Origin: a virus
Strand: one strand, 5' to 3'
DNA: 64,000 bases
IMG/VR virus record: IMGVR_UViG_3300046665_000384
Coordinates: 1 to 64,000 of that record
Position 1 is the first letter of the stretch. Every line of letters starts with the position of its first letter. The position numbers and the translations under genes were made by a program. Positions 5,858 to 63,878 of this stretch are shown here, in pieces. Under the pieces are notes generated by a model. That model made no database searches. It was not told the origin of the DNA and was given only the letters and a program-made list of their open reading frames with translations.

Positions 5858-8332
5858 TTACCCCACAGTAGCGGTCACGTCGAAGTTGCGGCCGTCCGCG
5901 AGCTGCACGGACACCCCGCAATTCGCGCCGACTGCCAACGTTGATTGCATCGTGAACGTCAGAACGCCACTGGCATTTGTCGTCTGCGCCGCCGATTTGT
6001 ACTGCGGGGCAGCACGCAGGTCTGGCGTAGGCTGATCGAATGCCGCCACCTTAATGCCGGCAAGGTTCGCCAGCGGCCCAGACGCATCACCCAATGTCAG
6101 CGTGACGGTGCGCGCAGTCGTGGTTCCAGTCGATGCCAGCGCAGAGCGAATAGCATTGGCGGCAAGCGGCGCAATGTGCGTAATGTTCTCGACCCCGTAC
6201 GGATGCAACGAATCACTTGCATTGGCAGTCGTGAACCAACCGGCAGTGTTTACGTAGGTGACACGGCTCGGCGCTGTGCAGGCCGCAATCGCGTTTTGCA
6301 GCTGAGTTGCGTGCACCGTACCGTTGCCGGATGCCACCCCGTCAAACGGACGCAGGACGACAATTTTTGTTGTCCCCGGCGTTGCGGCCAGCAGCCCGTT
6401 TAATACGGTTGTCGCGGCGGCCGTAATGTCGCCGGGCTCGTTCGTGCCTTCCATCAGCACGATGAAATCCGGGGCTGGGGTAAATGAACGGGCCACTCCA
6501 GAGTAAAGGTAGTTGTAGCTGGACGTGAGGCCCGGCACGCCACCCGATCCGGACTTGCTGAAGCCAGTTGCGCCGAAACCAACGTTCCCGATTTCTGCGC
6601 CGAGAATACGCGCGACTTCCAGAGACCAGCCTTGACCTGCATCGTTCCGGTCGGTGTCGTACGTGGCGGTCATGTTGACCGTACGGACGCCTTCCGTAAT
6701 GCTGTCACCGTAGAAGATGGCCTTCAGCGGCAACGATGGTGGCGCGCTGATCGTCTTGCCGGCATCGAGAACGATGCCAGTAAGCTTTACGGCGGTCGAC
6801 TGGGTGCTCCAACGCGCCTGCGTCTCGGTAGTGCTCTTTACCAGAACTTCCAGAAGGTGCCCGCCCTTGTTTGCGTAGTCGGCGGTGTCGGACGGAATCG
6901 TGATCGCGACTGAGGCTGCAATGGGGGTGCTGATCCACGGCCCGAAACGGTCCACCCGGTACGAAATTTGAGGCAACGGCGAAGCGATGCCGGTCATGTC
7001 GAAATTGAGCGTACAGGACGTGCCGCCAAAGACCGCCTTGAAATAGGCCCCGGCGTTGATCGTTTTGGCACTGGAGGCTTGAATGTCCCAGTTGTATGGC
7101 GAGAACAGGACGCTACCCGTGCCATTCGTCAGTACGTTGTTCGCGGCTGCAAGCGTACTGACAGTCGTGGAGATTGCTGCTGCTCGATTACCTGCGGCAT
7201 CGTATGCGCGCACCTGCGGCGTGTAGGCGGTATTCGCAGCCAACCCGCTGACAGCCGTGGTCAGGACATTGCCAACATCGGTCCAGCTCGTGCCGCCATT
7301 GGTACTGTATTCGTAACCAGCGACAGCAACGTTATCCGATGCGGCCGACCATGTGAGCGTGAAGCCGGAAGTGGTGGCAGCACTGGCTGCAAGCGAGCCA
7401 TTCATCGTAGGTGCCGCCCCATCCGAAGAGGTGGCGGTAGTCACGTCAAGAGACAGCGGAGCCGACTTGTTCAGGGCAGCGTCGTAGGCGCGCACCTGCG
7501 TGTGGTACAGCGTGTTCTGTGCAAGTCCGGTGATCGCCTTGGTCAGAACGTTGCCGGCATCGGTCCACGAGGTTCCGTTGTTGGTGCTGTACTCATACCC
7601 GGTGACCGCCACGTTGTCGGATGCAGCAGTCCACGACAGGGTAAATCCGGAAGCGGTGATGCTACTGGACGAAAGCGAGCCGACAGCCATCGTTGGCGCA
7701 ACGGTATCGCTTGAGGTAGCGCCATCGTCAACACTCACATCATCAATGCCGGTCGTCGCGGAACCTGCGCCAGAGCGGTACAGACCAACATAACCACTTG
7801 CGTACGTCGCATCGGTGAAGGTTGCCGTAGGCGTGGAAGGACGAGTACCACCTGTCGTGCTGTTCCAGATGCGCAGCTCGTGCGTGCTACCACTGGAAAT
7901 GCACTCGACTTCCATCACGTCGCCAGCGGCGAAGGTAGCGGTGCTCGCACCAGCCGTGTAAAGGCTTGTGAAACTCCCGCTTGCACGCCTGAAAAACTTT
8001 GGCGTGACTTTATTGGCATTGATAGAGAAATCCAGAATCCACAGGTAGCCGTTGAGATACCCGGAGTCCATGCGGATATGTGGCGAATAGTGCCCGGCAT
8101 TACTGGTGGGGCTTGGGACTTTCTGGCTGTACCTGAATTTTGTATACGATTGCGCTGCTATGCCCGTATAGAGAGCAGTATGACCATCAACGGTAGTCGA
8201 TGACCCGAAACTTTGCGTGCCAGAAATGGGATTATTGGCTCCAACAACCCACGTACCAGTTTTTGCTGTCCATCCAGATGCAATCTGGCCAGAGGTTTCG
8301 CTATCAAAATTACTTAAGTAGAGAATTGTCAT
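5858..8332 (-). CDS. Lectin-like + 2x FN3 + SGNH/GDSL hydrolase protein, probably virion-associated
   Basis: FYGDSITEG, GTN and DSLHP SGNH blocks; two FN3 repeats (LSWTAASDNVAVTGYEY...VRAYDAA); visibly lower GC than the flanks. Confidence 0.8.
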   Translation of the reverse strand: MTILYLSNFDSETSGQIASGWTAKTGTWVVGANNPISGTQSFGSSTTVDGHTALYTGIAAQSYTKFRYSQKVPSPTSNAGHYSPHIRMDSGYLNGYLWILDFSINANKVTPKFFRRASGSFTSLYTAGASTATFAAGDVMEVECISSGSTHELRIWNSTTGGTRPSTPTATFTDATYASGYVGLYRSGAGSATTGIDDVSVDDGATSSDTVAPTMAVGSLSSSSITASGFTLSWTAASDNVAVTGYEYSTNNGTSWTDAGNVLTKAITGLAQNTLYHTQVRAYDAALNKSAPLSLDVTTATSSDGAAPTMNGSLAASAATTSGFTLTWSAASDNVAVAGYEYSTNGGTSWTDVGNVLTTAVSGLAANTAYTPQVRAYDAAGNRAAAISTTVSTLAAANNVLTNGTGSVLFSPYNWDIQASSAKTINAGAYFKAVFGGTSCTLNFDMTGIASPLPQISYRVDRFGPWISTPIAASVAITIPSDTADYANKGGHLLEVLVKSTTETQARWSTQSTAVKLTGIVLDAGKTISAPPSLPLKAIFYGDSITEGVRTVNMTATYDTDRNDAGQGWSLEVARILGAEIGNVGFGATGFSKSGSGGVPGLTSSYNYLYSGVARSFTPAPDFIVLMEGTNEPGDITAAATTVLNGLLAATPGTTKIVVLRPFDGVASGNGTVHATQLQNAIAACTAPSRVTYVNTAGWFTTANASDSLHPYGVENITHIAPLAANAIRSALASTGTTTARTVTLTLGDASGPLANLAGIKVAAFDQPTPDLRAAPQYKSAAQTTNASGVLTFTMQSTLAVGANCGVSVQLADGRNFDVTATVG

Positions 8333-14983: not shown

Positions 14984-17401
14984 TTACGGACGGGTATGGC
15001 GCTGCTTTTCCAGCCAGCCCGCCGACGTGTACACGAGGTCCGACGAGATCGCCTTGGTCGATCCGTTCCCCACGTTCGGGGGCGAGTTATTGAGCCAGAT
15101 CGCAGCCCCGGCGGCGAATGCGACCGCATAGCCGCTGCCGCACAGCGTAAGCGGCTGTCCGTAGCGGGCGCCAGCTGCCAAAGTGGCCCCGGTTCGATCC
15201 GCGCCGTTCCCGCTCAGCATCATCGTCTGTGCCAAGATCGGCACCTGCACAGCATTTGCCGTGACGTTGTACGCTTGGTAGGTGCCCGGACCCGGCCCGT
15301 ACCAGTGCGCCATCGTAAAGCACCATTTGCCATTGAGGAACATGAAAACAGCCACATCGCAGGCCGCCATATTGCCGTTCACGAGCTGGCCCTGCTGACC
15401 AATCGGCAGAGTGGCCCCCGCCTGTCCGAAGTCGGCAGTCCCGCCCTGAACCAGCTCAATTGGCCAGCTGTTGTTCTTCAGGACGAAGACCTGCCCCTCT
15501 TTTGCGCCTGCGGTAGACAGCGTGATCCCGGTGCGGGCGGTAGTGCCGCCGTGGACGTATAGCCCGGCAGTCTTCGTGCTGATGACCTGATTGTCGCCCG
15601 TCAGCGCCACCGCGTTGATCAGGTCGTCGAAACGGAAGGCCGCAATGCCATTGCTACTCGCGACGAAGGCCGGCAGTGGCCCGCCATTGGCATCGCAGAT
15701 CGCATTGGAAGCGTCCGAATTGTGGCCATCGACCGTCAGTAGCGCATACGAAGCCCCGGAAGACTTGAAGTCGGCGGCAAACCGCTCGAAGTAGTTGCAG
15801 ACCGCATTCAGGCCGCCGTTGAAGTAGACGCCAGTGCCCACGCCGCCCGTGTAGGGGCGCGCGCCGGAATTGGCCCCGGAGAACGACTGAATCAGGTTGT
15901 GGGCCATGGTGTTGCCGCCACCGTTGACCAATGACACGGGCTGATCGCCCACGATGCCGTTACTCAAAATGCGTGTCGCGTTGATGCCGCCCGTGGTCCC
16001 GGCCGTCAGGATGCCGTACTCGAACTGGCGCACGCCCTGCGTGGTGACGGCGATCAGGTTGCCGGGGCCGATGGTATGCGTGTAGCTGCCGGCCTTGAAC
16101 GTGCCGAGATAATCCCGGTCGTCCAGCAGGATGCCGATGCCGCTGGACGTGTCGCGCGGCGCAAGGTTGACGTTGTGCGGGTTGAACCGCGCGGCTCCCT
16201 GCACGGCGATGCCTACCGCCTTGGCCGGCACTGGCGCGTAGAAGTTGGCGCATTCGCAGTCGCTCGCGCGCACCGAAATGACCGCGTACACTTCCCAGCG
16301 CGCGGCCGCCCAGTCGGCGCTGAACGTCGCCCCGGACAGGTGCGCGGTCTTGCAGAAATAGGGCAGGCCGTCCGGCGTGCGCACGAGGTCATTGACTGCA
16401 TAGTTGACGCCGACCGCCCAGTTGCCACGGTCCACCACCGTCATCTGCAACTTGATGTAGGTCTCGTGCAGGCTCACGCCGCACAGCCGGGTCTGGCGCT
16501 TCGACAGCACCAGCGGGCGCGACGTGATGAACAGCTTGCGCTTGAGGTTGATGGTGCCGCCGACATCGAGTGTCGCCTGCAATTCGTCGGTGTCATCGGC
16601 CACGCCGTCGCCAATGGCTTGGAACCACTCGGGGTTCACTCCGCCCTCATAGACGCGATCCCAGACCGCCGCGCCCACGATGCGGGTGCCGCCGTTGTCG
16701 ACCGCTGATGCCGGATCCAGATCGTCGCGGCGGATGAACATCCCCGCGATGCCGACCGGGACGGCGGTTCCGACCATACCCGTCACGTCCACGCGCTTCG
16801 CTGGCCCGGTATAGGTGCGCAGCGCCGCGTAATCGCTGACGAAACCGCTCGCGTTGGCCGAGGTGGCTTCCGCCATCGCCCGCGCCACGGCGGCCTGCTC
16901 ACTGGCCACGGAAGCCTGATTCAGCGCGGTTTGCGCGGCCTCCTGCGCGTAGCTGGACTGGAGGGCGATGTCGGCCGACTGGGCGTCGTTGTTGACCGTG
17001 ATCGAACCGGGCGGCAGCACCGAGAAGTCCAGCACATACGTCACCGGGATAGGAATGTCGGGCGACTTGTAGAACAGGTAGGCCGCCGCGTGCGAGAGCA
17101 CGGCAAACAGCGTGTTCCCGGAATAAAAGCCGATTTCGCCGATCCACTTATCGTTGGCCGAGCGGTTGTCGGGCGCGGAATTCGTCAGCAGCACCCCGAC
17201 CTGAATCGAGCTGGGCGAAATGGTCGTGCCGCCATCGACGGGATAGCGCACGAATTCCTGCTTTAGAGCGGACTCGAAGCCGCTCGGGTCGTACTTCTGG
17301 CCACCGAACGCAATATGCGTGATGGCGACATTGAAGCCCGGTTGCTGCCCGGTGAACAGGGCGAGGCCATCGGAAGTGAGCGTAGGATTCAGGTTAATCA
17401 T
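14984..17401 (-). CDS. Tail spike: shared baseplate-anchor domain + beta-helix (pectate-lyase-like) with CBM5/12-like insert
   Basis: VNPEWFQAIGDGVADDTDELQ; WAVGVNYAVNDLVR...YFCKTAH; N-terminal ~140 aa paralogous to three neighbours. Confidence 0.8.
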   Translation of the reverse strand: MINLNPTLTSDGLALFTGQQPGFNVAITHIAFGGQKYDPSGFESALKQEFVRYPVDGGTTISPSSIQVGVLLTNSAPDNRSANDKWIGEIGFYSGNTLFAVLSHAAAYLFYKSPDIPIPVTYVLDFSVLPPGSITVNNDAQSADIALQSSYAQEAAQTALNQASVASEQAAVARAMAEATSANASGFVSDYAALRTYTGPAKRVDVTGMVGTAVPVGIAGMFIRRDDLDPASAVDNGGTRIVGAAVWDRVYEGGVNPEWFQAIGDGVADDTDELQATLDVGGTINLKRKLFITSRPLVLSKRQTRLCGVSLHETYIKLQMTVVDRGNWAVGVNYAVNDLVRTPDGLPYFCKTAHLSGATFSADWAAARWEVYAVISVRASDCECANFYAPVPAKAVGIAVQGAARFNPHNVNLAPRDTSSGIGILLDDRDYLGTFKAGSYTHTIGPGNLIAVTTQGVRQFEYGILTAGTTGGINATRILSNGIVGDQPVSLVNGGGNTMAHNLIQSFSGANSGARPYTGGVGTGVYFNGGLNAVCNYFERFAADFKSSGASYALLTVDGHNSDASNAICDANGGPLPAFVASSNGIAAFRFDDLINAVALTGDNQVISTKTAGLYVHGGTTARTGITLSTAGAKEGQVFVLKNNSWPIELVQGGTADFGQAGATLPIGQQGQLVNGNMAACDVAVFMFLNGKWCFTMAHWYGPGPGTYQAYNVTANAVQVPILAQTMMLSGNGADRTGATLAAGARYGQPLTLCGSGYAVAFAAGAAIWLNNSPPNVGNGSTKAISSDLVYTSAGWLEKQRHTRP

Positions 17402-17430
17402 GGGGGCGCATCAAGAGAATTGATGCGCCC

Positions 17431-17472
17431 ATTCTGTGGCGCACGAGCAGGCCGCCGCCCGGCGCTTTTCCT
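17431..17472 (-). promoter_or_regulatory. Late-type promoter B (AGGAAAA-N29-CAGAAT)
   Basis: Conserved motif and spacing. Confidence 0.8.
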
Positions 17473-17485
17473 ATGCCCCCATAGG

Positions 17486-19183
17486 TTACGGCTCGATCCA
17501 CCCCTTGATGTGCAATTTGCCTGCGCTGCGGAGGCCAGCCATGCTCCCGTCGTTGTAGTAATTGAATTTCTGGTAATACAGGAACGGGATTTGAATGTTG
17601 GTGAAGTAATAAGGCTCCGTCGTGGTGGCGTTTTTCCTCATGTACCCCGTGTGCACGATGTGGTTGCTGCCATCCGGGTCGAAATACTCGGCATAGTCGC
17701 CCTGCGTCGCCGTCGAAAATGCGCCGCCGGATTCGAGGATTGCCGCCGTGGCCAGAGGGCTGATATAGCCGGCGCACTGCAATACCGCACCGGGCACCGT
17801 AAAGCGGCCGGCGGAAACGTCCGGCGACTGCAATTCGTTCATCTTGCAGCGCACGACCGTCCCGCTGTCGTAGATGTTGCGCACGGCGTCGTCGTCCATG
17901 TAGAACGACGAGATGTAGACGTAGTTCTGCGCGTTCGGGGGCGCGGGCAGAAGGAAGTCGCCGAACGCCAGACCGCCGGGCACATCGAGCGTGACGGTGG
18001 AGGCGCTGTTGGCGGTAATCTTGGCGATACGGCCGGACCAGCCCGAGCCCTCACTGATGATCAGGCAATCTACGCCCGCGAGATTGTTCGCGGTCTTCCA
18101 CGCGTACGTCTGCACGAGCTGGGCGTGCACCATCTCCCCAGCCATGTTCAGCGTGACCACGTTCCCGGCGACGGAGGAGACCCGCAGGAATGGCATGGTG
18201 ACGATTTTCGCGCTCGTGTCGCCGGGGTTGGAAATGGCGAACGCTGCATACCAGTTGTCCGAGCGGAACGTGCTTTCTGCACCGAGCCCTTCCGGCGCGC
18301 ACGAGGCGATATTGTCGAGGAGCGGCAGCATCGGACCGCGCGCTTTTGTGTAATGGCCACGGTAGCGGAAGCCGCCCATGGTGGCAAAGCGCCGCGAAAT
18401 CGTGACCGACAGCGCGTTGTGGTACAGCAGCGCGTCGCGCGGGCTTGCCACGACCGGCACAAGGGCCAGCGCATCGGCCACGCTGCCGGTTCCGTATCCG
18501 ATCTGCGTTGCGCCGCCGGGAGCGGCAAAGGCTGAGGCTTCGACGTTCGGGATGTACCAAACGGCCCCGTTCCACGTCTTTTCCGCGCCCGCGATGATGT
18601 CGAAATAGCGGTCGCCCTTCTGGCTGGCCGTGCCATCGGGGCGCGCAGTCGGCGCTACCGCCAGCGGCCCGTAATAGGTCGAGCGGACTTGGGTTGCGGC
18701 GACAGCTGCCGCCGCCGCGTTCGCCTGTGCGGTTTGCGCGGCAAGCCGCAAGTCGTCCGAAACCGTGGGCGTATTGACCGTCAGGGCATTCGGCGGCAGC
18801 GTCGAAAAGTCCAGCACGTAGCTGATCGGAACATCGAGCCCCGGCGACTTGTAGAACAGCGCCCCTTGGGCTTGGCTGAGCACCGCGAGCAGCGTTGTCC
18901 CGACGTAAAAGCCGACCTCACCGATGAATTTGTTGTTGGGCGTGCGCCCCTGCGCATCCGCGTCCTTCAGGAGGGCGCCAATCTCGATCTGGCTGGGCGA
19001 GATGTTCGCGCCGGACGACACCGGGAACCGGGCGAACTCGGCATGCAAGGCGACCTCGGCCCCGGTCGGGTCATAGAAGGCGCTGCCAACTGCAATATCC
19101 GTGACGGAAACGGAAAAGCCGGGGGCCTGATTGGTGAACAGGGCAAGCCCGGCCGTCGTAATTCTTGGGTTTCGAGTAAGCAT
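17486..19183 (-). CDS. Tail fibre / receptor-binding protein
   Basis: Shared anchor domain; YYGPLAVAPTARPDG...GDRYFD...WNG fibre motif. Confidence 0.75.
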   Translation of the reverse strand: MLTRNPRITTAGLALFTNQAPGFSVSVTDIAVGSAFYDPTGAEVALHAEFARFPVSSGANISPSQIEIGALLKDADAQGRTPNNKFIGEVGFYVGTTLLAVLSQAQGALFYKSPGLDVPISYVLDFSTLPPNALTVNTPTVSDDLRLAAQTAQANAAAAAVAATQVRSTYYGPLAVAPTARPDGTASQKGDRYFDIIAGAEKTWNGAVWYIPNVEASAFAAPGGATQIGYGTGSVADALALVPVVASPRDALLYHNALSVTISRRFATMGGFRYRGHYTKARGPMLPLLDNIASCAPEGLGAESTFRSDNWYAAFAISNPGDTSAKIVTMPFLRVSSVAGNVVTLNMAGEMVHAQLVQTYAWKTANNLAGVDCLIISEGSGWSGRIAKITANSASTVTLDVPGGLAFGDFLLPAPPNAQNYVYISSFYMDDDAVRNIYDSGTVVRCKMNELQSPDVSAGRFTVPGAVLQCAGYISPLATAAILESGGAFSTATQGDYAEYFDPDGSNHIVHTGYMRKNATTTEPYYFTNIQIPFLYYQKFNYYNDGSMAGLRSAGKLHIKGWIEP

Positions 19184-19198
19184 AGGGGTAGCTATCGT

Positions 19199-19846
19199 TT
19201 AAACGGCGGTGCCGGATGCGTCGGTCCAGATGGCGCTGTTCCACCAGATCGGCTTGTTGAGCGTCGTATCGAAGAAATACATTCCGTTGTAGCGGGTGCT
19301 CGGGCGCTGGGCGGTCGTGCCGCGCAGGTTCAGGCTGTTCGCCTGCGCGGCAAGCAGGCCCGCATGCGCGCCGCTGTCGGCCTGATGCGCGGCCAGCAGC
19401 GCCACCAGCGCGGCCGGGTCGGCGGTCGAATTGACCGTGACCGAGCCCGCCGGCAGCACGGAAATGTCCAGCGTGTAGGCGACCGGGATGTCGACATCCT
19501 GCGATTTATAGAAAAACGCCGGCTCGGGCTTGCTCAGGATCGCGAACAGGGTCGTGCCCGCGTAAAAGCCGATTTCCCCGACCCACTGGCTGCTGGTGGA
19601 CCGGTTCTGCGCATCGGTGTTGGTGATGGTGAACCCGATGTTCACCTGCGAGCCATTGATGGATGTCCCGCCTGCGACTGGGAAGCGCGCGATTTCGAGC
19701 TTCAGCGCGCGCTCGTTACCGGTGGGGCTGTAGGACTGCGACCCGATTGCGACAGCGGTAATCGCTACGCTCGTGCCGGGCGTTCGGGCCGCCTCGCGCG
19801 CCAGCGCAAGGCCCGCCGTCGTGATCTTGGGGCTGAGATTGAGCAT
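19199..19846 (-). CDS. Short tail-fibre paralogue or adaptor
   Basis: Shared anchor domain plus GTTAQRP...YFFDTTLNKPIWW...W tail motif. Confidence 0.7.
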   Translation of the reverse strand: MLNLSPKITTAGLALAREAARTPGTSVAITAVAIGSQSYSPTGNERALKLEIARFPVAGGTSINGSQVNIGFTITNTDAQNRSTSSQWVGEIGFYAGTTLFAILSKPEPAFFYKSQDVDIPVAYTLDISVLPAGSVTVNSTADPAALVALLAAHQADSGAHAGLLAAQANSLNLRGTTAQRPSTRYNGMYFFDTTLNKPIWWNSAIWTDASGTAV

Positions 19847-19872
19847 TGCATCCTCGAATGGTAGATGCGTCC

Positions 19873-19914
19873 ATTCTCAGACTGGCGGGGAGGGGCGCGC
19901 TCCCCGGTTTTCCT
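19873..19914 (-). promoter_or_regulatory. Late-type promoter C (AGGAAAA-N29-GAGAAT)
   Basis: Conserved motif and spacing. Confidence 0.8.
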
Positions 19915-20197
19915 ATACCCCTTCGGATCGCTTGCAGTGGTCCTTGTCCAGCCAATCAAGGATGCGGCACAGGATGCACCAGCCGCGCACGCCCTCGGCG
20001 CGCCCCCGGTTCGCACGGCTGCTGATGCTCTCCTTGTCGTCGCCGCCCGTCGCCGCGTTGCCGAGGCGGTCGTAGGCGAGCAGGATGCGCTTGCCCCGGT
20101 CACTGCCGGTGATGATGTAGCCGACCATGCGCACGGATGCGACGACGTGCGCGATCTGCGCCACGATCCACAGGACCGCCATCGCCCAGCGCTTCAT
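19913..20197 (-). CDS. Small phage protein of a type often found next to tail fibre genes
   Basis: DRLGNAATGGD..ESISSR...LCRILDWLDKDHC. Confidence 0.7.
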   Translation of the reverse strand: MKRWAMAVLWIVAQIAHVVASVRMVGYIITGSDRGKRILLAYDRLGNAATGGDDKESISSRANRGRAEGVRGWCILCRILDWLDKDHCKRSEGV

Positions 20198-21021
20198 GCA
20201 GCACCTCCGTTTTCGTCGACAGGCTGGGGCTCCGCAGTCTCGTCGCCGGCCGCCGGCTCAGGCTCGGGATCAGGTTCCGGCGCAGGATCAGGGTCGGCAT
20301 CCGGGGCGGGTTCAGGATCAGGCGCGTGCTCGGGCCACGTCACGGCTTGCACGGCCGTGATCGCATCCTCTGCCGGATCGATGCGCGATGCCGCATCAAT
20401 GGCGTCCTCGCAGCGCTGGCGCAGGCCGATGATTTGGCCGGACATCACCGCGAACAGGTCCGCCTTCTGGATCACCTTTTGCGCCAGCGCGGCCAGATCG
20501 ACCCCGCGCGCTGCGGAGAGGGCGGCGAGCAGCGGCGTGGGCGCGGCTGCATCGGCCGCGTAGGCGCGCGCCTCGGCCTCCTGCTTGGACCACGACTGCA
20601 CCTCACCCTCGGGGTAGCCTGCCTTCACCGCACGCAGCTCCAGCTCGCACCGGGCATTGATTGCGGCGAGTGCGGCGGCCCGGACGCGCAGCAGCGTTAC
20701 CGAGGCTGGTTCCGGCTCGGGCTCCGGCGTGGGGTCCGGGTCGGGCTCGGGTGCTGGAGCCTCAGGGTCCGGATCGGGGGCCGGGGCGGGCTCGGGCTCG
20801 GCCGGAGTCACGTCCTCATACGTCCATGCTTCATCGACGAAGCGGCGCAGCTTCCCTTCCACTGGCGGGGGCGGCGCGTCCAGTACGCACAGGTAGGGAA
20901 CGTGGTAGACGCCTTCCTCCAGCGGCGACAGGTCGGCGACTGTATCGCCCACGTAGTAGCCGTGGGCGTCGAGCTGATACGCCGGGATGGTGGGCGAAAA
21001 GATGTCGTTTTGCGTGTCCAT
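20194..21021 (-). CDS. Tail fibre assembly chaperone-like protein with Pro/Asp/Glu linkers
   Basis: YQLDAHGYYVG...ADLSPLEEGVY; YPEGEVQSWSKQEAEARAY...TPLLAALSAARG. Confidence 0.75.
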   Translation of the reverse strand: MDTQNDIFSPTIPAYQLDAHGYYVGDTVADLSPLEEGVYHVPYLCVLDAPPPPVEGKLRRFVDEAWTYEDVTPAEPEPAPAPDPDPEAPAPEPDPDPTPEPEPEPASVTLLRVRAAALAAINARCELELRAVKAGYPEGEVQSWSKQEAEARAYAADAAAPTPLLAALSAARGVDLAALAQKVIQKADLFAVMSGQIIGLRQRCEDAIDAASRIDPAEDAITAVQAVTWPEHAPDPEPAPDADPDPAPEPDPEPEPAAGDETAEPQPVDENGGAA

Positions 21022-21032
21022 AATCGTCCGTT

Positions 21033-22376
21033 TTAATACTTGATGCAGGCCAGCATGGCAATATTGCGCACCCGGTTTTCCGTGATACCCGTCGAGTTCA
21101 CGGTGACGCTGTGGCTGTGCGAGCCGTTCGCGTCCGACGTGAACGTGTGGTTGTGGGTGCCGGCAGGGTCGGATGTGAACGAGTGCGCGTGCGCATTCGC
21201 CGGATCCGACGTGAACGTGTGGTTGTGCGAGCCGGCCGGCCCCGTGTTGACGTTCGCGTAGGTCTGGGTACCGCCACCATCGCCGAATGCTGCCGTGGTG
21301 CCATCGCGCGCCGTAACGGTCGTCGGGTGCGTGTGGTTTCCGATGGTCGACGTGGTACCGGTGTGCGAGTGGGCTGCAACGGTGCCGGTCGTACCCGTGT
21401 GCGAGTGGTCAAGCACGCTTGCGGTCGTACCCGTGTGCGAGTGCGCCAGCGCGGTGTCGGAATAACCCGTGTGGCTGTGCGCCATGATCGCCGCATCTTG
21501 CAGCGTGCCGATGGCTCGCCCGCTGTCCACACCCTTGCCGTCATCGAGCGCGCGGATATGGCTCGCCCGGTAGTCCGGAATGCGGAACGTGGTAGCGCCG
21601 TCGCCGGGGGAGAACTGGCCGGGCAACCACGCGCCATCGTTGGCGGCCATGTTGCCGCTCGCCTGCGCGAACGCCCACAGGTCGGCATAGGCCGTACGGC
21701 TCAGGAGCGCACCGTTGCCCTTCACATAGCCGGCAGGCGCAAAAATCGACGGGAAGAAGTGCAGGGAGCCGACCGCGCCCGACACCTGTTCGACATCCCG
21801 CGTCGCTGCGCTTTTCAGCCCGAGATTCGTCCGCGCCTGCGGCACGTTCGTGAGGTCGGACAGGTTCTTGGACCTCGTGGCGTACTGCGGGTGCGGGTCG
21901 GCGCGGTTCTCGTGCTGGAAGATCACTGACGCCAAGCTTGCGGCGGCCATGTCTACCGTGACGGTCACGGAATTCTTCGGAAGGCGCGACACGTCGATCC
22001 GGTAAGCCACCGGGATATCGAAGTCGGACGTTTTGTAGAACAGGGCCTTGTCGGCGCGGCTCCACACGGCAAACAGGGTGGGGCCGGCGAAGAAGCCGAT
22101 TTCTCCGATCCACTGATCGTTCGCTGAGCGGCCGTAGATGTCCGTGTCGGTGAAGTTCGCGCCGATCTGCACCTGATTGGGGATGTCCGACATGATGCCG
22201 CCCGCGATGATCGGGAAGCGCGCCACCTCGGCCTTGAGCGCCCCTTCGGCACCGGTCGGCTCGTACTTCGCTGTACCGATGGCGATATGCGTCAGCGTGA
22301 CCTGAAAGCCGGGCGCGGTCGGATTGGGGAACAGCGCAAGGCCATTGTTCGTGATCGTGGGATTAAGCGGAACCAT
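21033..22376 (-). CDS. Tail fibre with collar domain and HxH metal-binding needle
   Basis: Anchor domain; collar (APAGYVKGNGALLSRTAYADLW...GDGATTFRIPD); nine HxH motifs; ends ENRVRNIAMLACIKY. Confidence 0.9.
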   Translation of the reverse strand: MVPLNPTITNNGLALFPNPTAPGFQVTLTHIAIGTAKYEPTGAEGALKAEVARFPIIAGGIMSDIPNQVQIGANFTDTDIYGRSANDQWIGEIGFFAGPTLFAVWSRADKALFYKTSDFDIPVAYRIDVSRLPKNSVTVTVDMAAASLASVIFQHENRADPHPQYATRSKNLSDLTNVPQARTNLGLKSAATRDVEQVSGAVGSLHFFPSIFAPAGYVKGNGALLSRTAYADLWAFAQASGNMAANDGAWLPGQFSPGDGATTFRIPDYRASHIRALDDGKGVDSGRAIGTLQDAAIMAHSHTGYSDTALAHSHTGTTASVLDHSHTGTTGTVAAHSHTGTTSTIGNHTHPTTVTARDGTTAAFGDGGGTQTYANVNTGPAGSHNHTFTSDPANAHAHSFTSDPAGTHNHTFTSDANGSHSHSVTVNSTGITENRVRNIAMLACIKY

Positions 22377-38497: not shown

Positions 38498-38893
38498 TCA
38501 GTTCCAGCCGACCGGGCAGGAAATGCTCAGGGTCTCGGGACACAATCGCTCGTGCGCATTGGAGACGGGGACGTGCGAAGCGCTCATCAGGGCCGCGTAG
38601 CCCGGCAGGGCGATCACCGAGGCCATCAACATCACCGCGACAGGACTTCGTTCGATGGGCACGGCGGGCTTGACCATGCCGGCGGCCAGCTGGGCGCGCT
38701 CGACTGCCGCGACGGCCACGACCGGGGCGGTGACAATCGCATCATTGGCGACGACCGAGACGGCGGCCTGCTCGATGCGCGGCGGGCTGGTACCGGGCGA
38801 AGCCGGGACGACCTGTGCGCACACGCTGGCGGCGAAGCCCATCAGTGCGACGGCGGCCAGCGTGACGAGCATGCGGGATCGGGATTTCAGCAT
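38498..38893 (-). CDS. Putative exported protein
   Basis: Signal-peptide-like N-terminus; AAGGAG RBS. Confidence 0.55.
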   Translation of the reverse strand: MLKSRSRMLVTLAAVALMGFAASVCAQVVPASPGTSPPRIEQAAVSVVANDAIVTAPVVAVAAVERAQLAAGMVKPAVPIERSPVAVMLMASVIALPGYAALMSASHVPVSNAHERLCPETLSISCPVGWN

Positions 38894-38929
38894 CTTGACT
38901 CCTTGGGTTGAGGTTGGACTACGAAGGGA

Positions 38930-39220
38930 TTACGCGGTCACACGGACGGCGTGGGTTGCCGAGCAGCTGATCGACGAGGTGCTGATGACCGGCGAATCAG
39001 CCGGGCCGGACCAGCTCAGGTAGCCGCTGCACGACACGGAAACGTTCTTGGTGTCGTCGTCCGCCAACAGGTCGACGACGGCATTGACGTTGGCCAGCAC
39101 GGCGTCGCGGTCGCGCGCATGCATCGGCTGGTGCGCGAGGACGATTTCATCGAATTTGGCGGCGGCGGCCGCTTTGACTCCGGCCTTATCTGCTGCTGCG
39201 ACGGTGAACGAAAAGCTCAT
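38930..39220 (-). CDS. Hypothetical protein
   Basis: GAAGGA RBS. Confidence 0.65.
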   Translation of the reverse strand: MSFSFTVAAADKAGVKAAAAAKFDEIVLAHQPMHARDRDAVLANVNAVVDLLADDDTKNVSVSCSGYLSWSGPADSPVISTSSISCSATHAVRVTA

Positions 39221-39258
39221 GGGGTTCCTTCAGGTGGGTTGAACTGCGGAGAAGCCGG

Positions 39259-39405
39259 TTACGAGTGGAGCGACAGCCAAAGCCAGAGAAATCGGCACAG
39301 GGCGTCCGAGAAGGCCCAGCCGATGGGCAGCGCGCACGCGACGAGGAGGGCGAGCCCGGCGGCGCTGATGCGTTGTCCGCCTGCACGGCGAAGTCGCATC
39401 TTCAT
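39259..39405 (-). CDS. 48-aa membrane peptide
   Basis: GAGGGA RBS; basic N-terminus plus hydrophobic segment. Confidence 0.4.
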   Translation of the reverse strand: MKMRLRRAGGQRISAAGLALLVACALPIGWAFSDALCRFLWLWLSLHS

Positions 39406-39412
39406 TCCCTCA

Positions 39413-39428
39413 TTTCGTGAGCGCATAC
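39413..39428 (+). promoter_or_regulatory. Promoter-less operator copy TTTCGTGAGCGCATAC next to the dif-like site
   Basis: 15/16 match to the operator; no TTGAC at the expected -35 position. Confidence 0.75.
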
Positions 39429-39429
39429 G

Positions 39430-39457
39430 ATTTGACATAAGATAGATTATGCGAATC
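39430..39457 (-). other. dif-like XerC/XerD recombination site GATTCGCATAA-TCTATC-TTATGTCAAAT
   Basis: 11-6-11 layout; XerD arm 10/11 and XerC arm 8/11 identical to E. coli dif. Confidence 0.85.
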
Positions 39458-39473
39458 TAAGTCATTGATTTTA
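39458..39473 (-). promoter_or_regulatory. IHF consensus site (AATCAATGACTTA)
   Basis: Matches WATCAANNNNTTR with an AT-rich flank; directly adjoins the XerC arm. Confidence 0.65.
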
Positions 39474-39624
39474 AAGGACTTTTAATCGACAATACATTTT
39501 CTATTGTCGAGTCCGGTTGTTGCGCGAATCCGGCCCGAGAACGTCCCGGAAAACGGTCCCAGAGTGCCTAGCGGTGATCTGCCCAGCTTCGCGCCCGGTA
39601 TGGTCGCCACACACTACGGGGATG

Positions 39625-39666
39625 ACTGTACGGCTGGCCCCGGCACGCGCCCGGCGGCGTTTTCCT
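39625..39666 (-). promoter_or_regulatory. Late-type promoter F (AGGAAAA-N29-TACAGT)
   Basis: Conserved motif and spacing; points through the dif-like site. Confidence 0.7.
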
Positions 39667-39685
39667 AACCGCGCGGCGCTTTCTC

Positions 39686-39715
39686 TTGACAGTTAGTTTC
39701 GTGATCGCATACATT
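39686..39715 (+). promoter_or_regulatory. Sigma70 promoter TTGACA-N18-TACATT with operator TTTCGTGATCGCATAC
   Basis: Operator family member. Confidence 0.8.
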
Positions 39716-39758
39716 ATGCGCAGTTAAGCGCGAGACGCGGCATTACACGGAGAATTTG

Positions 39759-39968
39759 ATGGACAAGAGCAGGATCAGGGTCGCGAGAAACACCTACGGC
39801 AATTACGTGGGCTTCATCGGCTCGAAGGCGGCCGAGCAGTTCGGCGAGGACGAGTTCCGCGCAACGCAATGGCTGAGCGACCGTCTCAACGAGGGCGGAT
39901 TCGTCCTGTCGGCGAAAAGCGATGTGACCATGCGCGATGTCGAGCGCCACCGCGCGAACGTCGCATGA
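39759..39968 (+). CDS. Hypothetical protein
   Basis: GGAG RBS. Confidence 0.65.
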   Translation: MDKSRIRVARNTYGNYVGFIGSKAAEQFGEDEFRATQWLSDRLNEGGFVLSAKSDVTMRDVERHRANVA

Positions 39969-40276
39969 CGAAGGCCCCTAGCACCATGCTGCTGAACCTC
40001 AGTTCCCTCATGCTCCGCCTGCTGGCGCAGCACGCACCCCTCGGCAGCTTGCTTGCGAAGATCGGCATGCAGCTGCGCCACCGCCACGACGCCGCCAGCG
40101 GGGTCCAGATCATGGCCGACGACAGCGACGCCGCGTGCATCGCCCGGTGCGCGCTGGATCGGTTCGAGGCACTGGGCCACGCCATTGCCGCCGCCGAGAC
40201 TGACGCGGACAAGGAACCGCTGTTCATCGAGTACCACGCGTGGCGCGCGCTCGTGCGCCAGCTGCCGCCGGCTTGA
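39965..40276 (+). CDS. Hypothetical protein
   Basis: ATGA coupling. Confidence 0.55.
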   Translation: MTKAPSTMLLNLSSLMLRLLAQHAPLGSLLAKIGMQLRHRHDAASGVQIMADDSDAACIARCALDRFEALGHAIAAAETDADKEPLFIEYHAWRALVRQLPPA

Positions 40277-40308
40277 GCGCCCGCCGGGTCCGTGCTAAAG
40301 TACCCGGC

Positions 40309-40840: not shown

Positions 40841-41104
40841 ATGGCCGCGAATACCGAACTGACGAAATCGCAACAGGCTGTGATCGATGCCATGAACGAT
40901 GGCGCAAGGCTTGCCGTTGATCCGATTACGGGCGCACACCTGATCCGCTCATCCGAGCTGGCTAAAAAGCATGGCGTAGCACCAATGGAGCGGGTAAGCA
41001 TCAAGACGTTCGACGCCTTGCGCAGCAAGCGTGCCATCAAGCGCCCGATCAAAGGCGGCACGGAGTTCACTTTCAACGGCTACGGAGATTTCATCGTCGC
41101 CTGA
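40841..41104 (+). CDS. Hypothetical protein
   Basis: GGAG RBS. Confidence 0.65.
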   Translation: MAANTELTKSQQAVIDAMNDGARLAVDPITGAHLIRSSELAKKHGVAPMERVSIKTFDALRSKRAIKRPIKGGTEFTFNGYGDFIVA

Positions 41105-42970: not shown

Positions 42971-43182
42971 GCATCGTCTATTCCGCCGATGTGTTCTGCG
43001 ACGGCGAATGCGCCGGCCTCTGGACGCACGGGGCCACCGGATCGGCGGCCCCGACGAAGACCGAAGCACGCGCGAACGCCGCCCACTCGGGCTATGTCCA
43101 CCACAAAGGCAAGGACTACTGCCCGGCATGCTGGAAAGCGCTCGCCGCCAAACAAAACGAACCCGAGGAGGCCCACCAGTGA
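42967..43182 (+). CDS. Small zinc-finger protein
   Basis: CDGEC...DYCPAC. Confidence 0.65.
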
Positions 43183-43772
43183 GCCGTGTTTTTGCCTACT
43201 GCCGCGTGTCGACGACGGACCAGACCACCGACAACCAGCGCGCGGAAATCGTCACCGCTGGGTACGCCATCGAGCCCCAGCGCGTCATCACGGAGACGAT
43301 CAGCGGCTCCGTTGCGGCGAAGTCGCGCCCCGGCTTCAAAAAGCTGCTGGACCGGCTGGAGCGCGACGACGTGCTGATCGTGACGAAGCTGGACCGCCTC
43401 GGGCGCAACGCGTTCGACGTGCGCGGGACAGTGGAACACCTCGCCAGCATCGGCGTGCGCGTGCACTGCCTCGCGCTGGGCGGCATCGACCTCACCAGTG
43501 CGGCCGGCAGGATGACCATGCAAGTGATCGCCGCCGTCGCCGAGTTCGAGCGCGACCTGCTCATCGAGCGCACGAATGCTGGCCTACGCACGGCGGTCGC
43601 GAAAGGAAAGCGCCTCGGCAGGCCACCCGCCCTGAACGAAGAAGACCGGGAACAGGCCCTCGCGCTGCTGGCGGTTGGCGTGCCCGTGTCCGAGGTGGCG
43701 CGCGACCTCGGCACCTCCCGCGCGACCATCATCCGCGTGCGCGACGCCGCACAGGAAGCAGCCCCGGCGTGA
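43179..43772 (+). CDS. Small serine recombinase (resolvase/invertase, Pin-like) with C-terminal HTH
   Basis: YCRVSTTDQ...RPG...[13 protein letters not shown]...[12 protein letters not shown]...GRP; GTG start with GAGGAGG RBS. Confidence 0.95.
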
Positions 43773-46714: not shown

Positions 46715-48244
46715 TTATGCCGCGTCTTGCATGCCCAGTTCGGCCAGAAGTCGTTTCTTGGCCTCGTCCTTGGCGTTGTCGTCGTTGGCGGCCACCTCGC
46801 CGCTCAGGTTGTAGTAGGCGTCTTCGAGGAAGCCGAACGCGAGCGAGTCAAACGCGTCAGGCGACGGGATGCCTTCCTTGCGCATGTCCTCTTTCTTGGC
46901 GATGTAGCGGCGGGCCTTCTCGTCGAAGTGGTACGGGATGCGCGAGCCCTCGCGGATGATCTGCTTGACGACGGCCGGGTCGATGCCCTCGTCTATGCCG
47001 AAGCGGCCCTCTTGGATCGCGCGCGCCAGCCCGCAAATAGCCTGCGCGCGCTGGTTCACATAGCGGTCCTTGTATTCCTTCTTGAAGTTCGGCGAGCCCC
47101 AGAGAACTTTCTTGAAGGCGTGGAAATCGGCCTTCTCCAGCGCCTTGCACACCGCGAGGCCGATGCCGCCCGCGTCGATCATGGTCATGGAGTTCGGCAG
47201 CTGACCGGCCTCGGTGACGATGCGCCCCGGCAGGTCCGACACGTCCTGATCGTTCGCGCACACCGGCACGCGCACGAGCTGCATGCGGCGCGCGTCGTCG
47301 CCGAACTCGCCATAGCCGGCCACCTTGACCGCGAACAGCGTCGTCTTGTCGCGGTACCCGCCGCCGCCCACGTCCGAGAGCTGGAGCCAGCCGTAATCCT
47401 CGCCCGGCAAGATGACCTGCCGGCCCACGCACGCCTGAATGGCCTTCGGGCCGAGCAGGTATTTGCTGGACTGCTCCGAAAACAGGCCCAGCACCTTGAT
47501 ATCGAATTCCTCGGGCGTGTACTGGAGCTTCTTCTCGGCGATGAACTCCTCGGACACGATGGGCGAATCGGCCGAGCTGAACGTCAGGTTGTTCCACGCG
47601 CCGCCCTCGCCCTTGGACAGCGTGTGGTGCGTGTCGTAGAAGAAGCCCGAGGCGCGGGTCGGCTGCGACGCGATGCACATGCGGTTGCGCTTGTCCGTCA
47701 GCGCGCCCGTGATCACGCCGAAGTTCGCATCAGGCACGCCGGACGCCTCGTCGACGAGGAACAGCAGCCAGTCCCGGTGCGCACCCGCGAGGTTTTCAGG
47801 CGAGCCGCGCGGCGCGGTCTTGGCCACAACCCACCAGTTCAGCTTGTAGCCCTTGATGTACACCCGCTCGGTTTCCACCTCGTAATACTCGTCCACCCAT
47901 CCGTGCGGGCCGGCGGCGATCTTGGCCTTGAGGTCGGCGAATTCCTTCCAGACACCATCTGCAACAGTGGCCTTCTTAGGCGCGGACAGGATCGTGTTCG
48001 AGTTGTAGAAGCAGAGCAGATGCCACAGGGCGATTACGGCAAAGCCGGCAGTCTTGCCGGTACCGTGGCCAGACGCCACCGACGTGCGCGATCCGGGCGG
48101 CGCAACGCTGTCGAACATCTCGACCTGCTGGTGCGTGGGCACCATGCGGCAGACCTCGATGGCGAACCGGGTCAGGTCGAACGAATAGCGCAGCACGAAA
48201 TCGCGGTAGCGCGGGTCTTCCCGGAGCGATTTTGTACGGGCCAC
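46715..48244 (-). CDS. pacB: Terminase large subunit (P1 PacB-like)
   Basis: Walker A SGHGTGKT, Walker B LFLVDEASG, nuclease Asp motifs (SDVGGG, IDAGGIG, SPDAFDS). Confidence 0.9.
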   Translation of the reverse strand: MARTKSLREDPRYRDFVLRYSFDLTRFAIEVCRMVPTHQQVEMFDSVAPPGSRTSVASGHGTGKTAGFAVIALWHLLCFYNSNTILSAPKKATVADGVWKEFADLKAKIAAGPHGWVDEYYEVETERVYIKGYKLNWWVVAKTAPRGSPENLAGAHRDWLLFLVDEASGVPDANFGVITGALTDKRNRMCIASQPTRASGFFYDTHHTLSKGEGGAWNNLTFSSADSPIVSEEFIAEKKLQYTPEEFDIKVLGLFSEQSSKYLLGPKAIQACVGRQVILPGEDYGWLQLSDVGGGGYRDKTTLFAVKVAGYGEFGDDARRMQLVRVPVCANDQDVSDLPGRIVTEAGQLPNSMTMIDAGGIGLAVCKALEKADFHAFKKVLWGSPNFKKEYKDRYVNQRAQAICGLARAIQEGRFGIDEGIDPAVVKQIIREGSRIPYHFDEKARRYIAKKEDMRKEGIPSPDAFDSLAFGFLEDAYYNLSGEVAANDDNAKDEAKKRLLAELGMQDAA

Positions 48245-60783: not shown

Positions 60784-61600
60784 AAAGCCTGCCGAGCAGG
60801 CGCAAGATGCCGGCGCGGTCGCGACCCTGCCAGCGAATGCCCCCAAGGGGGCGGACCTGAACGCCGAGGTAGACGAAGCGCTCGATGCACTGGTCGTCGA
60901 GAACATCGACTGTCCGATGATGTACGAACTGGCGGCCGCCGAACTCATCGACCTGCGCGAGATGTATAAACGATTGGAGGAAAAGCGCTTTGCGATCACC
61001 CGCCCGATGGACGCGGCCAAGCAGCTCGTTCTGGACCTGTTCAAGCCCGCGCTGGCTCGCATTGACGCGAGGGTGCAGACCCTGAAGGCCGGCATGCTGG
61101 GCTACGAACAGTCGGAAAAGCGCAAGGCCGCCGCCAAGCAGGCCCTGCTCGACAAGATCGCGCTCGACCAGCGCGCGGCACTCGCCGCCGAGCAGGCGAA
61201 GCAAGCCGAGGAGGCTCGTTTGCAGAGCGAGCGCGCCGCGCAGCTCATGTCGGCCGGCGGTGACAGCACCGCCATCGCCGAGGCGCTTGACCAAGCCGAA
61301 CAGGCTCAGGAAATGGCGTCCGCGCTCCAGCAGACCACGATGGTTGTCAGCGCCGCCACGGCAGCGACCAACGTGCCAACGGTCGCGGGCGTCGTCTCCG
61401 CCGACGTGTGGAAGGCTCGCGTCACCGACATGGCCGCCCTCCTCCGCTTCATCGCCGACCACCCGGAACACCACGAGTGGATCGACCTCAAGATGTCCGG
61501 CCTGCACGAGCTGGCCAAGTCCCAGCGCACGGCCATGCGCATTCCGGGCGTCGAACCGTACGAAGAACAAACCATCGCCGCGCGCCGCCGGGCCGCATAA
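60773..61600 (+). CDS. Coiled-coil protein of the recombination operon
   Basis: [12 protein letters not shown]...LF; ends IPGVEPYEE. Confidence 0.65.
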
Positions 61601-61647
61601 CCACCCGCGCCGCGAAGGCGGCCACTACTTATAAGAGAGCCAACCCC

Positions 61648-62910
61648 ATGTGGATTAATAACGCGCAGGTCTACCGCCTGCCCAAACGCTACGCCCTGAC
61701 CTCTGCCCAGCTGATCGAAGCGCTCACGCCCCAGACGTTTGCCCCCTGCTCCAGCAACGAAGCCGAGCGCGCCGGCTGGGTACCGCCCCGTCCGGGCGGC
61801 GAACTGGTGCACGTCGTCCACGGCCAGATGATCCTCAAGCTGTGCGTGCAGAAAAAAGTCCTGCCGGGCGCGGTCGTGAACAAGGAGCTGAGGGCACGGT
61901 GCGCTCAGCTGGAAGAACAGCAGGGTTTCCCGCCCGGCAAAAAGGCGACCAAGGAACTGAAGGAGCGCGTCACCGACGAGCTGCTGGCGAAGGCGTTCGC
62001 GAAGGACGATTTCACGATGGTGTGGATTGACTGCACCAACGGCTGGCTGGTGATTGACGCGGCCAGCGCCACCAAGGCCGACGCGGTGATCAAGCTGCTG
62101 CTCAAGGCGGTCGACCGGATGCCGCTCGAATCGCTGCGCGTGCAAAAGTCGCCGGTCGCGGTGATGACGGGCTGGCTGGAGTCCGACGAGGCCCCGCATG
62201 GCTTTACCGTGGATCAGGATGTGACGTTGCGCGCAAGCGGGACGAGCGACGCCACGGTGACGTACAAGCGCCACAGCTTGGACCCCGAAGACATGCGCCG
62301 CCACATCGCCAACGGCAAGCAGTGCGTACGCCTCGCCCTGACGTGGAACAGCCGCGTGTCGTTCGTGCTCGACGAATCGCTGGCCGTCAAGCGCATCCAG
62401 CCGCTGGACGTGATCAAGGAAAACACGGCCGTCACCTACAGCGACGACGAGCGTTACGACAACGACATCATGCTCATGACCGGCGAGATGGCCAAGCTGC
62501 TCGATGGCCTCGTGGAAGCGCTGGGCGGGTTCGCCGTCGACGGCGTGGATGTCGGCCAGCAGTCCGCGCTGCCCTCCTCCGCGCACGAGGCCGCGCGCCA
62601 GCTGCACCAGACCGTTGCGCAGGCCGGCGCTACCGCCACCCTGACCTTCGGAAATCGTTCCGTGACGTTTGGCGCGCAGGACGGTGAGAACGAGCAGGAC
62701 GATGACGCCCTGTATGAGCAGGCTGTCGCCGTGGTGCGCGCCAACCAACGCGCATCCATCTCGCTCGTACAGCGCCACCTGCGCATCGGCTACAACCGCG
62801 CCGCGCGCCTGCTGGAAGAGATGGAGCGCAAGGGCGTCGTGAGCCCGATGGAGAGCAACGGCAACCGCACCCTGCTCCAGACCACCAATGACCAATCGGA
62901 GGCCGCATAA
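61648..62910 (+). CDS. rdgC: RdgC fused to a C-terminal FtsK gamma domain
   Basis: RdgC motifs ([28 protein letters not shown]...SFVL); [29 protein letters not shown]...NGNR. Confidence 0.9.
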
Positions 62911-63878
62911 TGACCCCGCCGAAATATGCCTCCCTGAAGGTAGCTGCCGAGAGCAAGATCGAGGGCGTGAAGAAGGAGACCATTTTTCAGGTCGACCCGT
63001 TTATCGTCGAAGTTGAGCCGGGCTTCAATCGCCCCCTCAGCCGTGACCACATCGAATCGATCAAGATGTCGTTGCGTAGCGGCGCGGAACTGGACCCGAT
63101 CTGGGTCCGCGTTCACCGGACCGCCGATACCAGCCGCATCGTCATGGTGGACGGTGAACATCGGCTCTGGGCAGTCCGCGAACTGGTCGAAGATTTCCGT
63201 GCCGGACGGGAAGGCGGGCGCGAAATCCCGCTCATGTCGGCCAAAGAGTTCAAGGGCAGCGACGCCGACCGGATCGCGCACCTGCTGACCAGCGCGCAGG
63301 GCCTGTCCATCGCCCCGCTCGACCTCGGCATCCAGTACAAGCGTCTGCTGAGCCTGCACTGGACTCGCCAGCAGATTGCGGAACGCGTGGGCAAGTCGAT
63401 CACGCACGTCGACGAGTGCATCATGCTGGCTGAGGCGAATACTGACGTGCAGCAGGCTGTGCGTAAGGACGAGGTGTCCGCGTCCCTTGCTGCGGAGATT
63501 CTTCGCGAGCATGGGGACGATGCCGGCAAGGTGATCCAGCAGGAACTGGTGAAGGCCAAGAGCAGTGGCAAGAGCAAGGTTACGCGCGCTGGCATGAAGG
63601 GCCGTGCCATGCCCCGCAAATTAACCGAACGCGTCACGGAATCTTTTGGCGTGTTCGCGGAGCGGATCACCCTGCCGCCATCGCTGCCCGATCTGTCGAA
63701 TCTGCCACCGGAGACCGAGGTAGAGGTGCAGGTCAAAATCCCGGCATCCATGCTGGCGGAGCTGAAGGCGGCGCATGAGGAATTGCTCAAGCACCGTGCG
63801 AAGGCCGCCGCACAGCAGGAACGGAATGAGCCCGCCCCTGAAGCTGGCAATGCCGACGATAACAAGGCCGGCGAGTAA
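62910..63878 (+). CDS. ParB/Srx-like protein with HTH
   Basis: GFNR...MVDGEHRLWA...WTRQQIAERVGKS. Confidence 0.8.
   Translation: MTPPKYASLKVAAESKIEGVKKETIFQVDPFIVEVEPGFNRPLSRDHIESIKMSLRSGAELDPIWVRVHRTADTSRIVMVDGEHRLWAVRELVEDFRAGREGGREIPLMSAKEFKGSDADRIAHLLTSAQGLSIAPLDLGIQYKRLLSLHWTRQQIAERVGKSITHVDECIMLAEANTDVQQAVRKDEVSASLAAEILREHGDDAGKVIQQELVKAKSSGKSKVTRAGMKGRAMPRKLTERVTESFGVFAERITLPPSLPDLSNLPPETEVEVQVKIPASMLAELKAAHEELLKHRAKAAAQQERNEPAPEAGNADDNKAGE

Follow-up and report, generated by a model that had tools for sequence, protein, structure and literature searches.

A chromosome-type dif site on a P1-like phage-plasmid without Cre, probably serving dimer resolution by host XerCD

The phage genome G000, an IMG/VR record of 92,973 bp, carries at positions 39430-39457 a sequence that is, as far as its letters can tell, a genuine chromosome-type dif (XerCD) site. 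The element is a P1-like phage-plasmid without Cre, and the site is probably the dimer-resolution site of its plasmid prophage, worked by host XerCD and FtsK in place of Cre/lox. The window referred to below is the whole stretch of DNA that was analysed, namely the first 64 kb of the record, and positions are those of the window unless given as genome positions. A sequence-only reading of this DNA had described a dif-like Xer site accompanied by an operator copy, an IHF box and a palindrome. All of these, the two arms and the spacer included, were found where that reading had put them. The features in and around the site are the following.

39259-39405, minus strand: leftward gene for a small membrane protein of 48 aa, with the dif site in its leader
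39413-39428, plus strand: orphan operator copy TTTCGTGAGCGCATAC, with 1 bp between it and the XerD arm, directly upstream of the leftward gene's ribosome-binding site
39430-39440: arm ATTTGACATAA (reverse complement TTATGTCAAAT) predicted to bind XerD; genome G008 has an identical XerD arm in its chromosome-2 dif
39441-39446: central region of 6 bp, GATAGA (TCTATC in XerC-to-XerD orientation)
39447-39457: predicted XerC-binding arm TTATGCGAATC (reverse complement GATTCGCATAA)
39446-39475, minus strand: predicted leftward sigma-70-type promoter, TTTAAA-N18-CATAAT (-35 at 39475-70, -10 at 39451-46)
39458-39470, minus strand: exact match to the IHF consensus AATCAATGACTTA (WATCAANNNNTTR), abutting the XerC arm
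39486-39510: palindrome TCGACAATA-N7-TATTGTCGA, one copy per genome
39522-39599: on the XerC side, inverted blocks GCGCGAATCCGG and GCTTCGCGCCCGGT (GCGCGAA/TTCGCGC), about 65 nt apart
39625-39666, minus strand: late-type promoter AGGAAAA-N29-TACAGT, which would transcribe leftward through the site
39686-39715, plus strand: rightward promoter with operator, TTGACA-N18-TACATT, for the gene at 39759-39968
39759-39968, plus strand: rightward gene

The core has the 11-6-11 layout of dif, with an inner CATAA/TTATG dyad and a consensus XerD arm, and reads GATTCGCATAA-TCTATC-TTATGTCAAAT on the other strand. It is the sole site found by a host-neutral dif scan of the 93-kb genome, and the exact 28-mer has a count of one, where dinucleotide shuffles expect 0. 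A search of viral contigs did not return this 28-mer. In about 20 small viral contigs (4-12 kb; L063-L092) these arms recur around spacers that are canonical or nearly so (TATACA, TATAAA), in many cases close to the end of the contig, and such contigs look like dif-integrated elements.

Comparison with host chromosomal dif sites was carried out by scanning 185,579 species genomes for the 26-mer. All 26 of 26 positions, spacer included, match chromosome 2 of G008, a genome of the candidate host genus titled Ralstonia pickettii RAL3 (G008:C2:416853-78). The GC skew changes sign at this position and GGGNAGGG motifs pass from 5:0 to 0:5 in the flanking 20 kb, and the matched site is therefore identified as the dif of G008 chromosome 2. 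The scan also hit a Lachnospira MAG, but within coding sequence in an AT-rich genome, and this match was discarded as chance. G008 possesses four replicons with a different dif spacer on each, and encodes XerD as well as a XerC-like gene. Replicon-specific dif spacers have been tabulated for Burkholderiales replicons (PMC2731167). GATAGA is the chromosome-2 dif spacer in G008, G038, G058, G025 and G031, all of the candidate host genus. The spacer TCTATC, which had been remarked upon as differing from that of E. coli, is thus not arbitrary, being the chromosome-2 dif spacer of several candidate-host species. Beginning 4 bases past its chromosome-2 dif, G008 has a pair of neighbouring genes that resemble tyrosine recombinases (441 and 531 aa, weak PF00589; L094 882-3742), and this gene pair may be a mobile element lodged at dif.

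The nature of the element is indicated by the following features, some of which lie past the end of the window.

43128-43772, plus strand: serine recombinase (Resolvase + HTH_7), best PHROG match 'DNA invertase', found in all relatives
46715-48145, minus strand: PacB-type large terminase of 476 aa, placing the element among P1-like phage-plasmids
61477-62910, plus strand: RdgC fused to an FtsK gamma domain (Pfam RdgC 3.8e-104, FtsK_gamma 3.2e-25)
62910-63878, plus strand: ParB-like partition protein, followed past the window end by repeats and ParA
Genome positions about 64050-64430: centromere-like GGTTTGGT repeats between ParB and ParA
Genome positions 64508-65146, past the window end: small Walker-type ParA

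The genome of 64% G+C has an estimated completeness of 100%. Its PacB homologue shows 33% identity to P1 PacB and 37% to D6 PacB, and matched 797 plasmid records, mostly P1-like E. coli plasmids. The genome further encodes a baseplate protein, several tail fibres, a CI/LexA-type repressor and a lambda-P-like helicase loader, together with an ORF of 2,286 aa that is P1 DarB-like on size alone. Degenerate GTGYGGTTTGGT repeats are clustered in both orientations at about 64050-64430, between ParB and ParA, and are likely to form a centromere or iteron array. No tyrosine recombinase (PF00589) was found in G000 or in six relatives. The ends of the record adjoin each other in the collinear genome G001 (87 kb, closed by terminal repeats), so G000 is a circular permutation without host DNA. 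The features by which phage-plasmids are recognized are present, namely packaging and structural genes together with partition genes, absence of an integrase, circular permutation and a relative that is a finished plasmid, and G000 is a phage-plasmid of the P1 type that lacks Cre; that G000 itself exists as a plasmid we infer. Four tail-fibre-like genes lie in the same orientation at 14984-22376 on the minus strand, and their diverged N-terminal segments form direct repeats (families D1, D3 and D4), which suggests several alternative fibres and not an invertible cassette.

DNA searches around the site in phages and plasmids gave no close relatives, and a search with the neighbouring 547-aa protein found none; relatives were found via the promoter motif and by alignment of the neighbouring Nlig-Ia protein. 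The set of close relatives comprises seven genomes or fragments, G000 itself among them (G000, G001, G002, G441, G442, G443 and G444). Each possesses a single site at the same spot, some 1 kb beyond the Nlig-Ia gene. In sequence the arms are ATTT[G/A/T]ACATAA and TTATGC..., every position of the XerD arm but base 5 being invariant, while the XerC arm has an invariant inner TTATGC and variable outer bases, as true dif sites do. The spacer is GATAGA in five members, GAAAGA in one and TGCTAA in one. The arms are more constrained than the neighbouring DNA, the intergenic surroundings being heavily diverged, and between G000 and G001 the site is an island of identity amid several kb that are not alignable as DNA. 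The site is therefore kept in relatives, as the sequence-only reading would require; the adjacency of an operator, which it would require as well, is confined to G000 and G002.

Among plasmids the best match was pBVIE05 from Burkholderia vietnamiensis G4, a circular plasmid of 88,096 bp from a finished genome. Its PacB is 65.6% identical, and its gene content includes RdgC, a CI-like repressor, the serine recombinase Bcep1808_7691 and operator-promoters of the G000 type. It has ParB-like and ParA genes with a RepB initiator beside ParAB, and no tyrosine recombinase. Its single dif-like site, at 7611-7638 of the plasmid record, reads CTGTTCGATAA-TTGTAT-TTATGTCAAAT (spacer ATACAA on the other strand) and possesses a perfect XerD arm and an inner XerC arm of TCGATAA, and the latter is the type of Burkholderia chromosomal dif sites (PMC2731167). 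Among 401 family genomes the TCGATAA type occurs in 39, none of them from the G008 genus, where TTATGCGAA (GCATAA) is used. The Burkholderia-type arm in pBVIE05 means that the phage-plasmid site changes with the host's own dif, and such a switch would be hard to explain unless host Xer proteins use the site.

Presence of the site is complementary to possession of an own tyrosine recombinase. The host-neutral scan gives one site in each of seven genomes without PF00589 (G000, G001, G442, G444, G003, G004 and pBVIE05) and no site in two relatives that have a tyrosine recombinase of their own, pKF715C and the prophage of G036. G003 and G004 belong to an unrelated lineage of phage genomes of about 100 kb, which are closed by terminal repeats and lack a tyrosine recombinase. 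Their sites (at 41093 in G003 and 67420 in G004) have the same arms with the spacer TCAACA (TGTTGA on the other strand) and lie 2 kb from the ParA gene. pKF715C, a P1-like phage-plasmid of P. putida, has its own site-specific integrase (L256 324-1562) and no dif-like site; it also carries a Tn3-family mercury-resistance transposon. The G036 prophage, a distant relative about 100 kb long with 54% identity in PacB, lies integrated next to thrS-pheST (G036:C1, about 1.44-1.545 Mb) and encodes an integrase of 336 aa; it has no dif-like site, and the G000 proteins gave no ParA or ParB match in it.

The GGGNAGGG motifs, which resemble the KOPS motifs that orient FtsK, point toward the site from both sides and diverge at ParB/ParA in six complete genomes, including G003 and G004. 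Over whole genomes and using a fitted origin, concordance is 93 of 101 motifs, compared with 61% among 41 composition-matched control motifs; here the origin was fitted post hoc, and the four genomes of the G000 lineage share ancestry and are not independent. Within 15 kb of the site, where no origin has to be fitted, concordance is 35 of 38 against 68% for controls (p about 4e-4). In G003 and G004 10 of 12 KOPS-like motifs are concordant with controls near 50%, and in pBVIE05 12 of 13, with the divergence at ParAB/RepB. General G-rich motifs also flip at the site in the G000 lineage (controls 61-89% concordant), and the polarity test is in part confounded by general strand asymmetry. Site and presumed origin do not face each other across the circle, the arcs between them being about 25 and 68 kb. 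GC skew peaks at kb 40 in G000 and is inconsistent in G001, G003 and G004, and is therefore not evidence of a terminus on its own.

These observations are best accounted for by dimer resolution. During lysogeny, homologous recombination between sister copies would produce dimers of the low-copy plasmid. Host XerD would bind ATTTGACATAA and host XerC TTATGCGAATC; the GGGNAGGG motifs would steer septal FtsK to the site, where it would activate XerD, and XerC and XerD would then exchange strands across the 6-bp spacer, returning the dimer to monomers. Binding, catalysis and FtsK dependence at the site are what we infer. Use of host XerCD instead of Cre/lox against dimers had been proposed beforehand, and it is the best reading because the element has no tyrosine recombinase, yet is P1-like by its PacB homologue and carries ParA and ParB.

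The site lies in an AT-rich divergent intergenic region (39406-39758) together with several sequences that could control transcription. The window contains 8 matches to the operator motif where 0.62 would be expected; the motif constitutes the spacer and -10 portion of a repeated promoter, TTGACA-N5-TTTYGTGAGCGCATAC-AAT. For the other six copies in the window, a TTGAC(A) -35 ends 5 nt ahead of the motif, which itself overlaps a TACAAT/TACATT -10, and the copy at 39413 is the only one without a -35 box. It had been described as the sole copy outside a promoter, which is right in respect of the -35 box, but it lies downstream of the predicted leftward and late-type promoters. An operator beside dif is found only in G000 and its closest relative G002, and is missing from five close relatives and pBVIE05; the close relatives without it read TTTCG-CGATTT at this point, which fits a 10-bp insertion in the G000/G002 line. 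The proposal that the operator-binding protein and IHF gate recombination is accordingly weakened in its first part: operator gating does not belong to the core mechanism, and the copy is a recent addition in two genomes, which may simply repress the leftward promoter overlapping the site.

The IHF part of that proposal fares better, as the box is present in seven of seven close relatives, with the N4 positions alone varying and at most 3 bp from the XerC arm, though the site of pBVIE05 is without it. The IHF consensus occurs twice in the 93 kb, and 2-3 times per 90-kb genome. The palindrome is found, slightly changed, in six of the seven close relatives, G001 being without it; the GCGCGAATCCGG and GCTTCGCGCCCGGT blocks are conserved in most relatives, and the TTTTCCTAAC block of the late-type promoter is invariant in seven. 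The accessory blocks of the XerC side are largely missing in pBVIE05. The IHF box and palindrome are lineage-specific additions; their role is either that of accessory sequences shaping the synapse or control of the leftward promoter overlapping the core. Structured RNA was also considered for the conserved XerC-side DNA and was dropped, as RNAalifold gave no covariation support in the leader; Rfam had no match on 38800-40300.

The overlap of the predicted leftward promoter with the IHF box and XerC arm (CATAAT in the arm, -35 in the IHF box), the late promoter that reads across the site and the operator in the leader of G000 and G002 would all suit a purely regulatory region, in which promoter, leader, IHF box and operator serve the leftward operon and the likeness to dif is incidental. 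Relatives retain both promoter hexamers, which is explained by their overlap with the IHF box and the dif core. Since the core overlaps the leftward promoter and lies inside the late-transcript leader, some of the conservation could be regulatory, and with these two promoters at the site it may be transcription, and not recombination, that IHF, the palindrome's binding protein and the operator of G000/G002 regulate. As an account of the whole site a purely regulatory role is highly improbable. A promoter does not need 26/26 identity with a host dif, and the Burkholderia-type XerC arm of pBVIE05, the convergence of GGGNAGGG motifs, also in an unrelated lineage with a differently surrounded site, and the lack of the site in recombinase-bearing relatives are left unexplained. 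The serine recombinase conserved in every relative raises another question, as it could be the real multimer resolvase, leaving the dif-like site for FtsK stopping, decatenation or septal positioning. An invertible tail-fibre segment and a res-like repeat were both looked for and not found; without the former an invertase has no visible role, and without the latter a resolvase has no visible site. From the KOPS-like polarity a relationship with FtsK is evident, but not what comes of it. DNA invertases are nevertheless the best family match (phrog_125, 1.1e-60), the complementarity between dif site and tyrosine recombinase fits one replacing the other, and in pKF715C a gene of this recombinase family occurs only within the Tn3-type insertion, its own tyrosine recombinase still being there. 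We regard resolution by the serine recombinase as quite unlikely, and host XerCD at the dif site as the probable resolution system.

Dimer resolution would not require that the spacer match chromosome-2 dif exactly, and this hints at something more, which leaves room for reversible docking into chromosome 2. The related proposal, made in the sequence-only reading alongside resolution, is that the site is an attP of the IMEX type, by which an integrase-less phage inserts via host XerCD at the dif of the secondary chromosome, either as a prophage or switching between plasmid and integrated states. G000 does lack a tyrosine recombinase, its arms and spacer equal the chromosome-2 dif of G008, GATAGA is common to four more species, and five of seven diverged relatives retain it. 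The RdgC-FtsK-gamma fusion, moreover, could act as XafT does for TLC-phi. Its gamma domain is 65-68% identical to that of host FtsK, and it is offered as a lead only, a candidate phage-borne XerD activator; it is present in G000, G442 and G444 (three of four complete genomes) and missing in G001 and pBVIE05, and is therefore optional. Against insertion, eight of eight genomes or fragments have the site internally, flanked on either side by phage DNA, as the earlier reading had noted for G000, and four assemblies close as circles. ParA, ParB and centromere-like repeats favour plasmid maintenance, and pBVIE05 is a plasmid in a finished genome. No relative adjoins dif in 78 genomes of the G008 genus, and the only related prophage has its own integrase at pheST; a PacB query found no integrated copy with dif or hybrid flanks in these 78 or in 396 family genomes. 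The spacers GAAAGA, TGCTAA, TGTTGA (G003/G004) and ATACAA (pBVIE05) are unseen on the sampled host replicons, and FtsK-XerCD would excise a prophage lying between two perfect dif sites. With no integrated copy seen and all contigs circular or permuted, integration finds no support in these data, and an attP function is distinctly unlikely. A broader scheme, speculative and rather unlikely, would treat the phage-plasmids as miniature chromosomes that copy the dif of a secondary chromosome together with its spacer, for both reversible docking and dimer resolution; the fusion would be a portable XerD activator independent of septal FtsK, like XafT, and IHF, the palindrome binder and the G000 repressor would set the timing.

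That plasmids and secondary chromosomes can carry host Xer sites is well established; IMEX phages, which insert at dif, are of small size, and P1 is the textbook plasmid prophage with Cre/lox as the textbook solution for dimers. In the literature searched no tailed phage-plasmid relying on a host-type dif was found, and a large survey of phage-plasmids deals with element-encoded recombinases only and leaves Xer unmentioned (PMC7969092). The present data indicate a whole Burkholderiaceae branch of P1-like phage-plasmids with no Cre-like recombinase and one host-type dif each, with the arm of the host clade and converging motifs, and the same arrangement recurs in a second, unrelated 100-kb phage lineage. 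If dimer resolution by host XerCD is confirmed, the dif arm type would be a host-range marker for uncultured phage-plasmids, selection for FtsK polarity would be seen to act on phage genomes, and pBVIE05 in B. vietnamiensis G4 would provide a cultured test system.

Four known systems can be compared with the present one. IMEX elements (CTX-phi, VGJ-phi, TLC-phi and the gonococcal genetic island) include integrase-less phages with a dif-like site, and their trait of a central region homologous to the target dif is present here (GATAGA, in G008 and four more species). TLC-phi reportedly brings its own XerD activator, XafT, to which the RdgC-FtsK-gamma fusion is a parallel. Unlike IMEX elements, the present one is a large tailed phage with partition genes, a fully consensus site where those of IMEX are crippled, and a free-plasmid relative, and no integrated copies were found. 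The cer site of ColE1 and psi of pSC101 are likewise plasmid sites for host XerCD with conserved DNA on the XerC side. In this type about 180 bp of accessory DNA on the XerC side is bound by ArgR, PepA or ArcA, and the core is degenerate. Here both arms are consensus, the spacer is of 6 bp (8 bp in cer), and an IHF box and palindrome take the place of ArgR, PepA and ArcA sites, none of which were identified; cer and psi are independent of FtsK, whereas the KOPS-like polarity suggests FtsK dependence here. P1 with Cre/loxP is similar in its PacB (33% identity to the homologue here), its DarB-like giant protein, its size of about 90 kb and its low-copy plasmid prophage that has to be kept monomeric, but the present element has neither Cre nor another tyrosine recombinase and carries a site of the host dif type instead of the 34-bp lox. 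Finally, chromosome II of V. cholerae with its dif2 and the secondary chromosomes of Burkholderiales (PMC2533119; PMC2731167) differ in that the replicon here is a 93-kb tailed phage with very unequal arcs, known from sequence alone, whose site lies in a transcribed leader beside an IHF box and palindrome. They share with it a plasmid-type ParAB replicon that possesses its own 28-bp dif, with consensus arms, a replicon-specific spacer and FtsK-orienting motifs that converge at the site.
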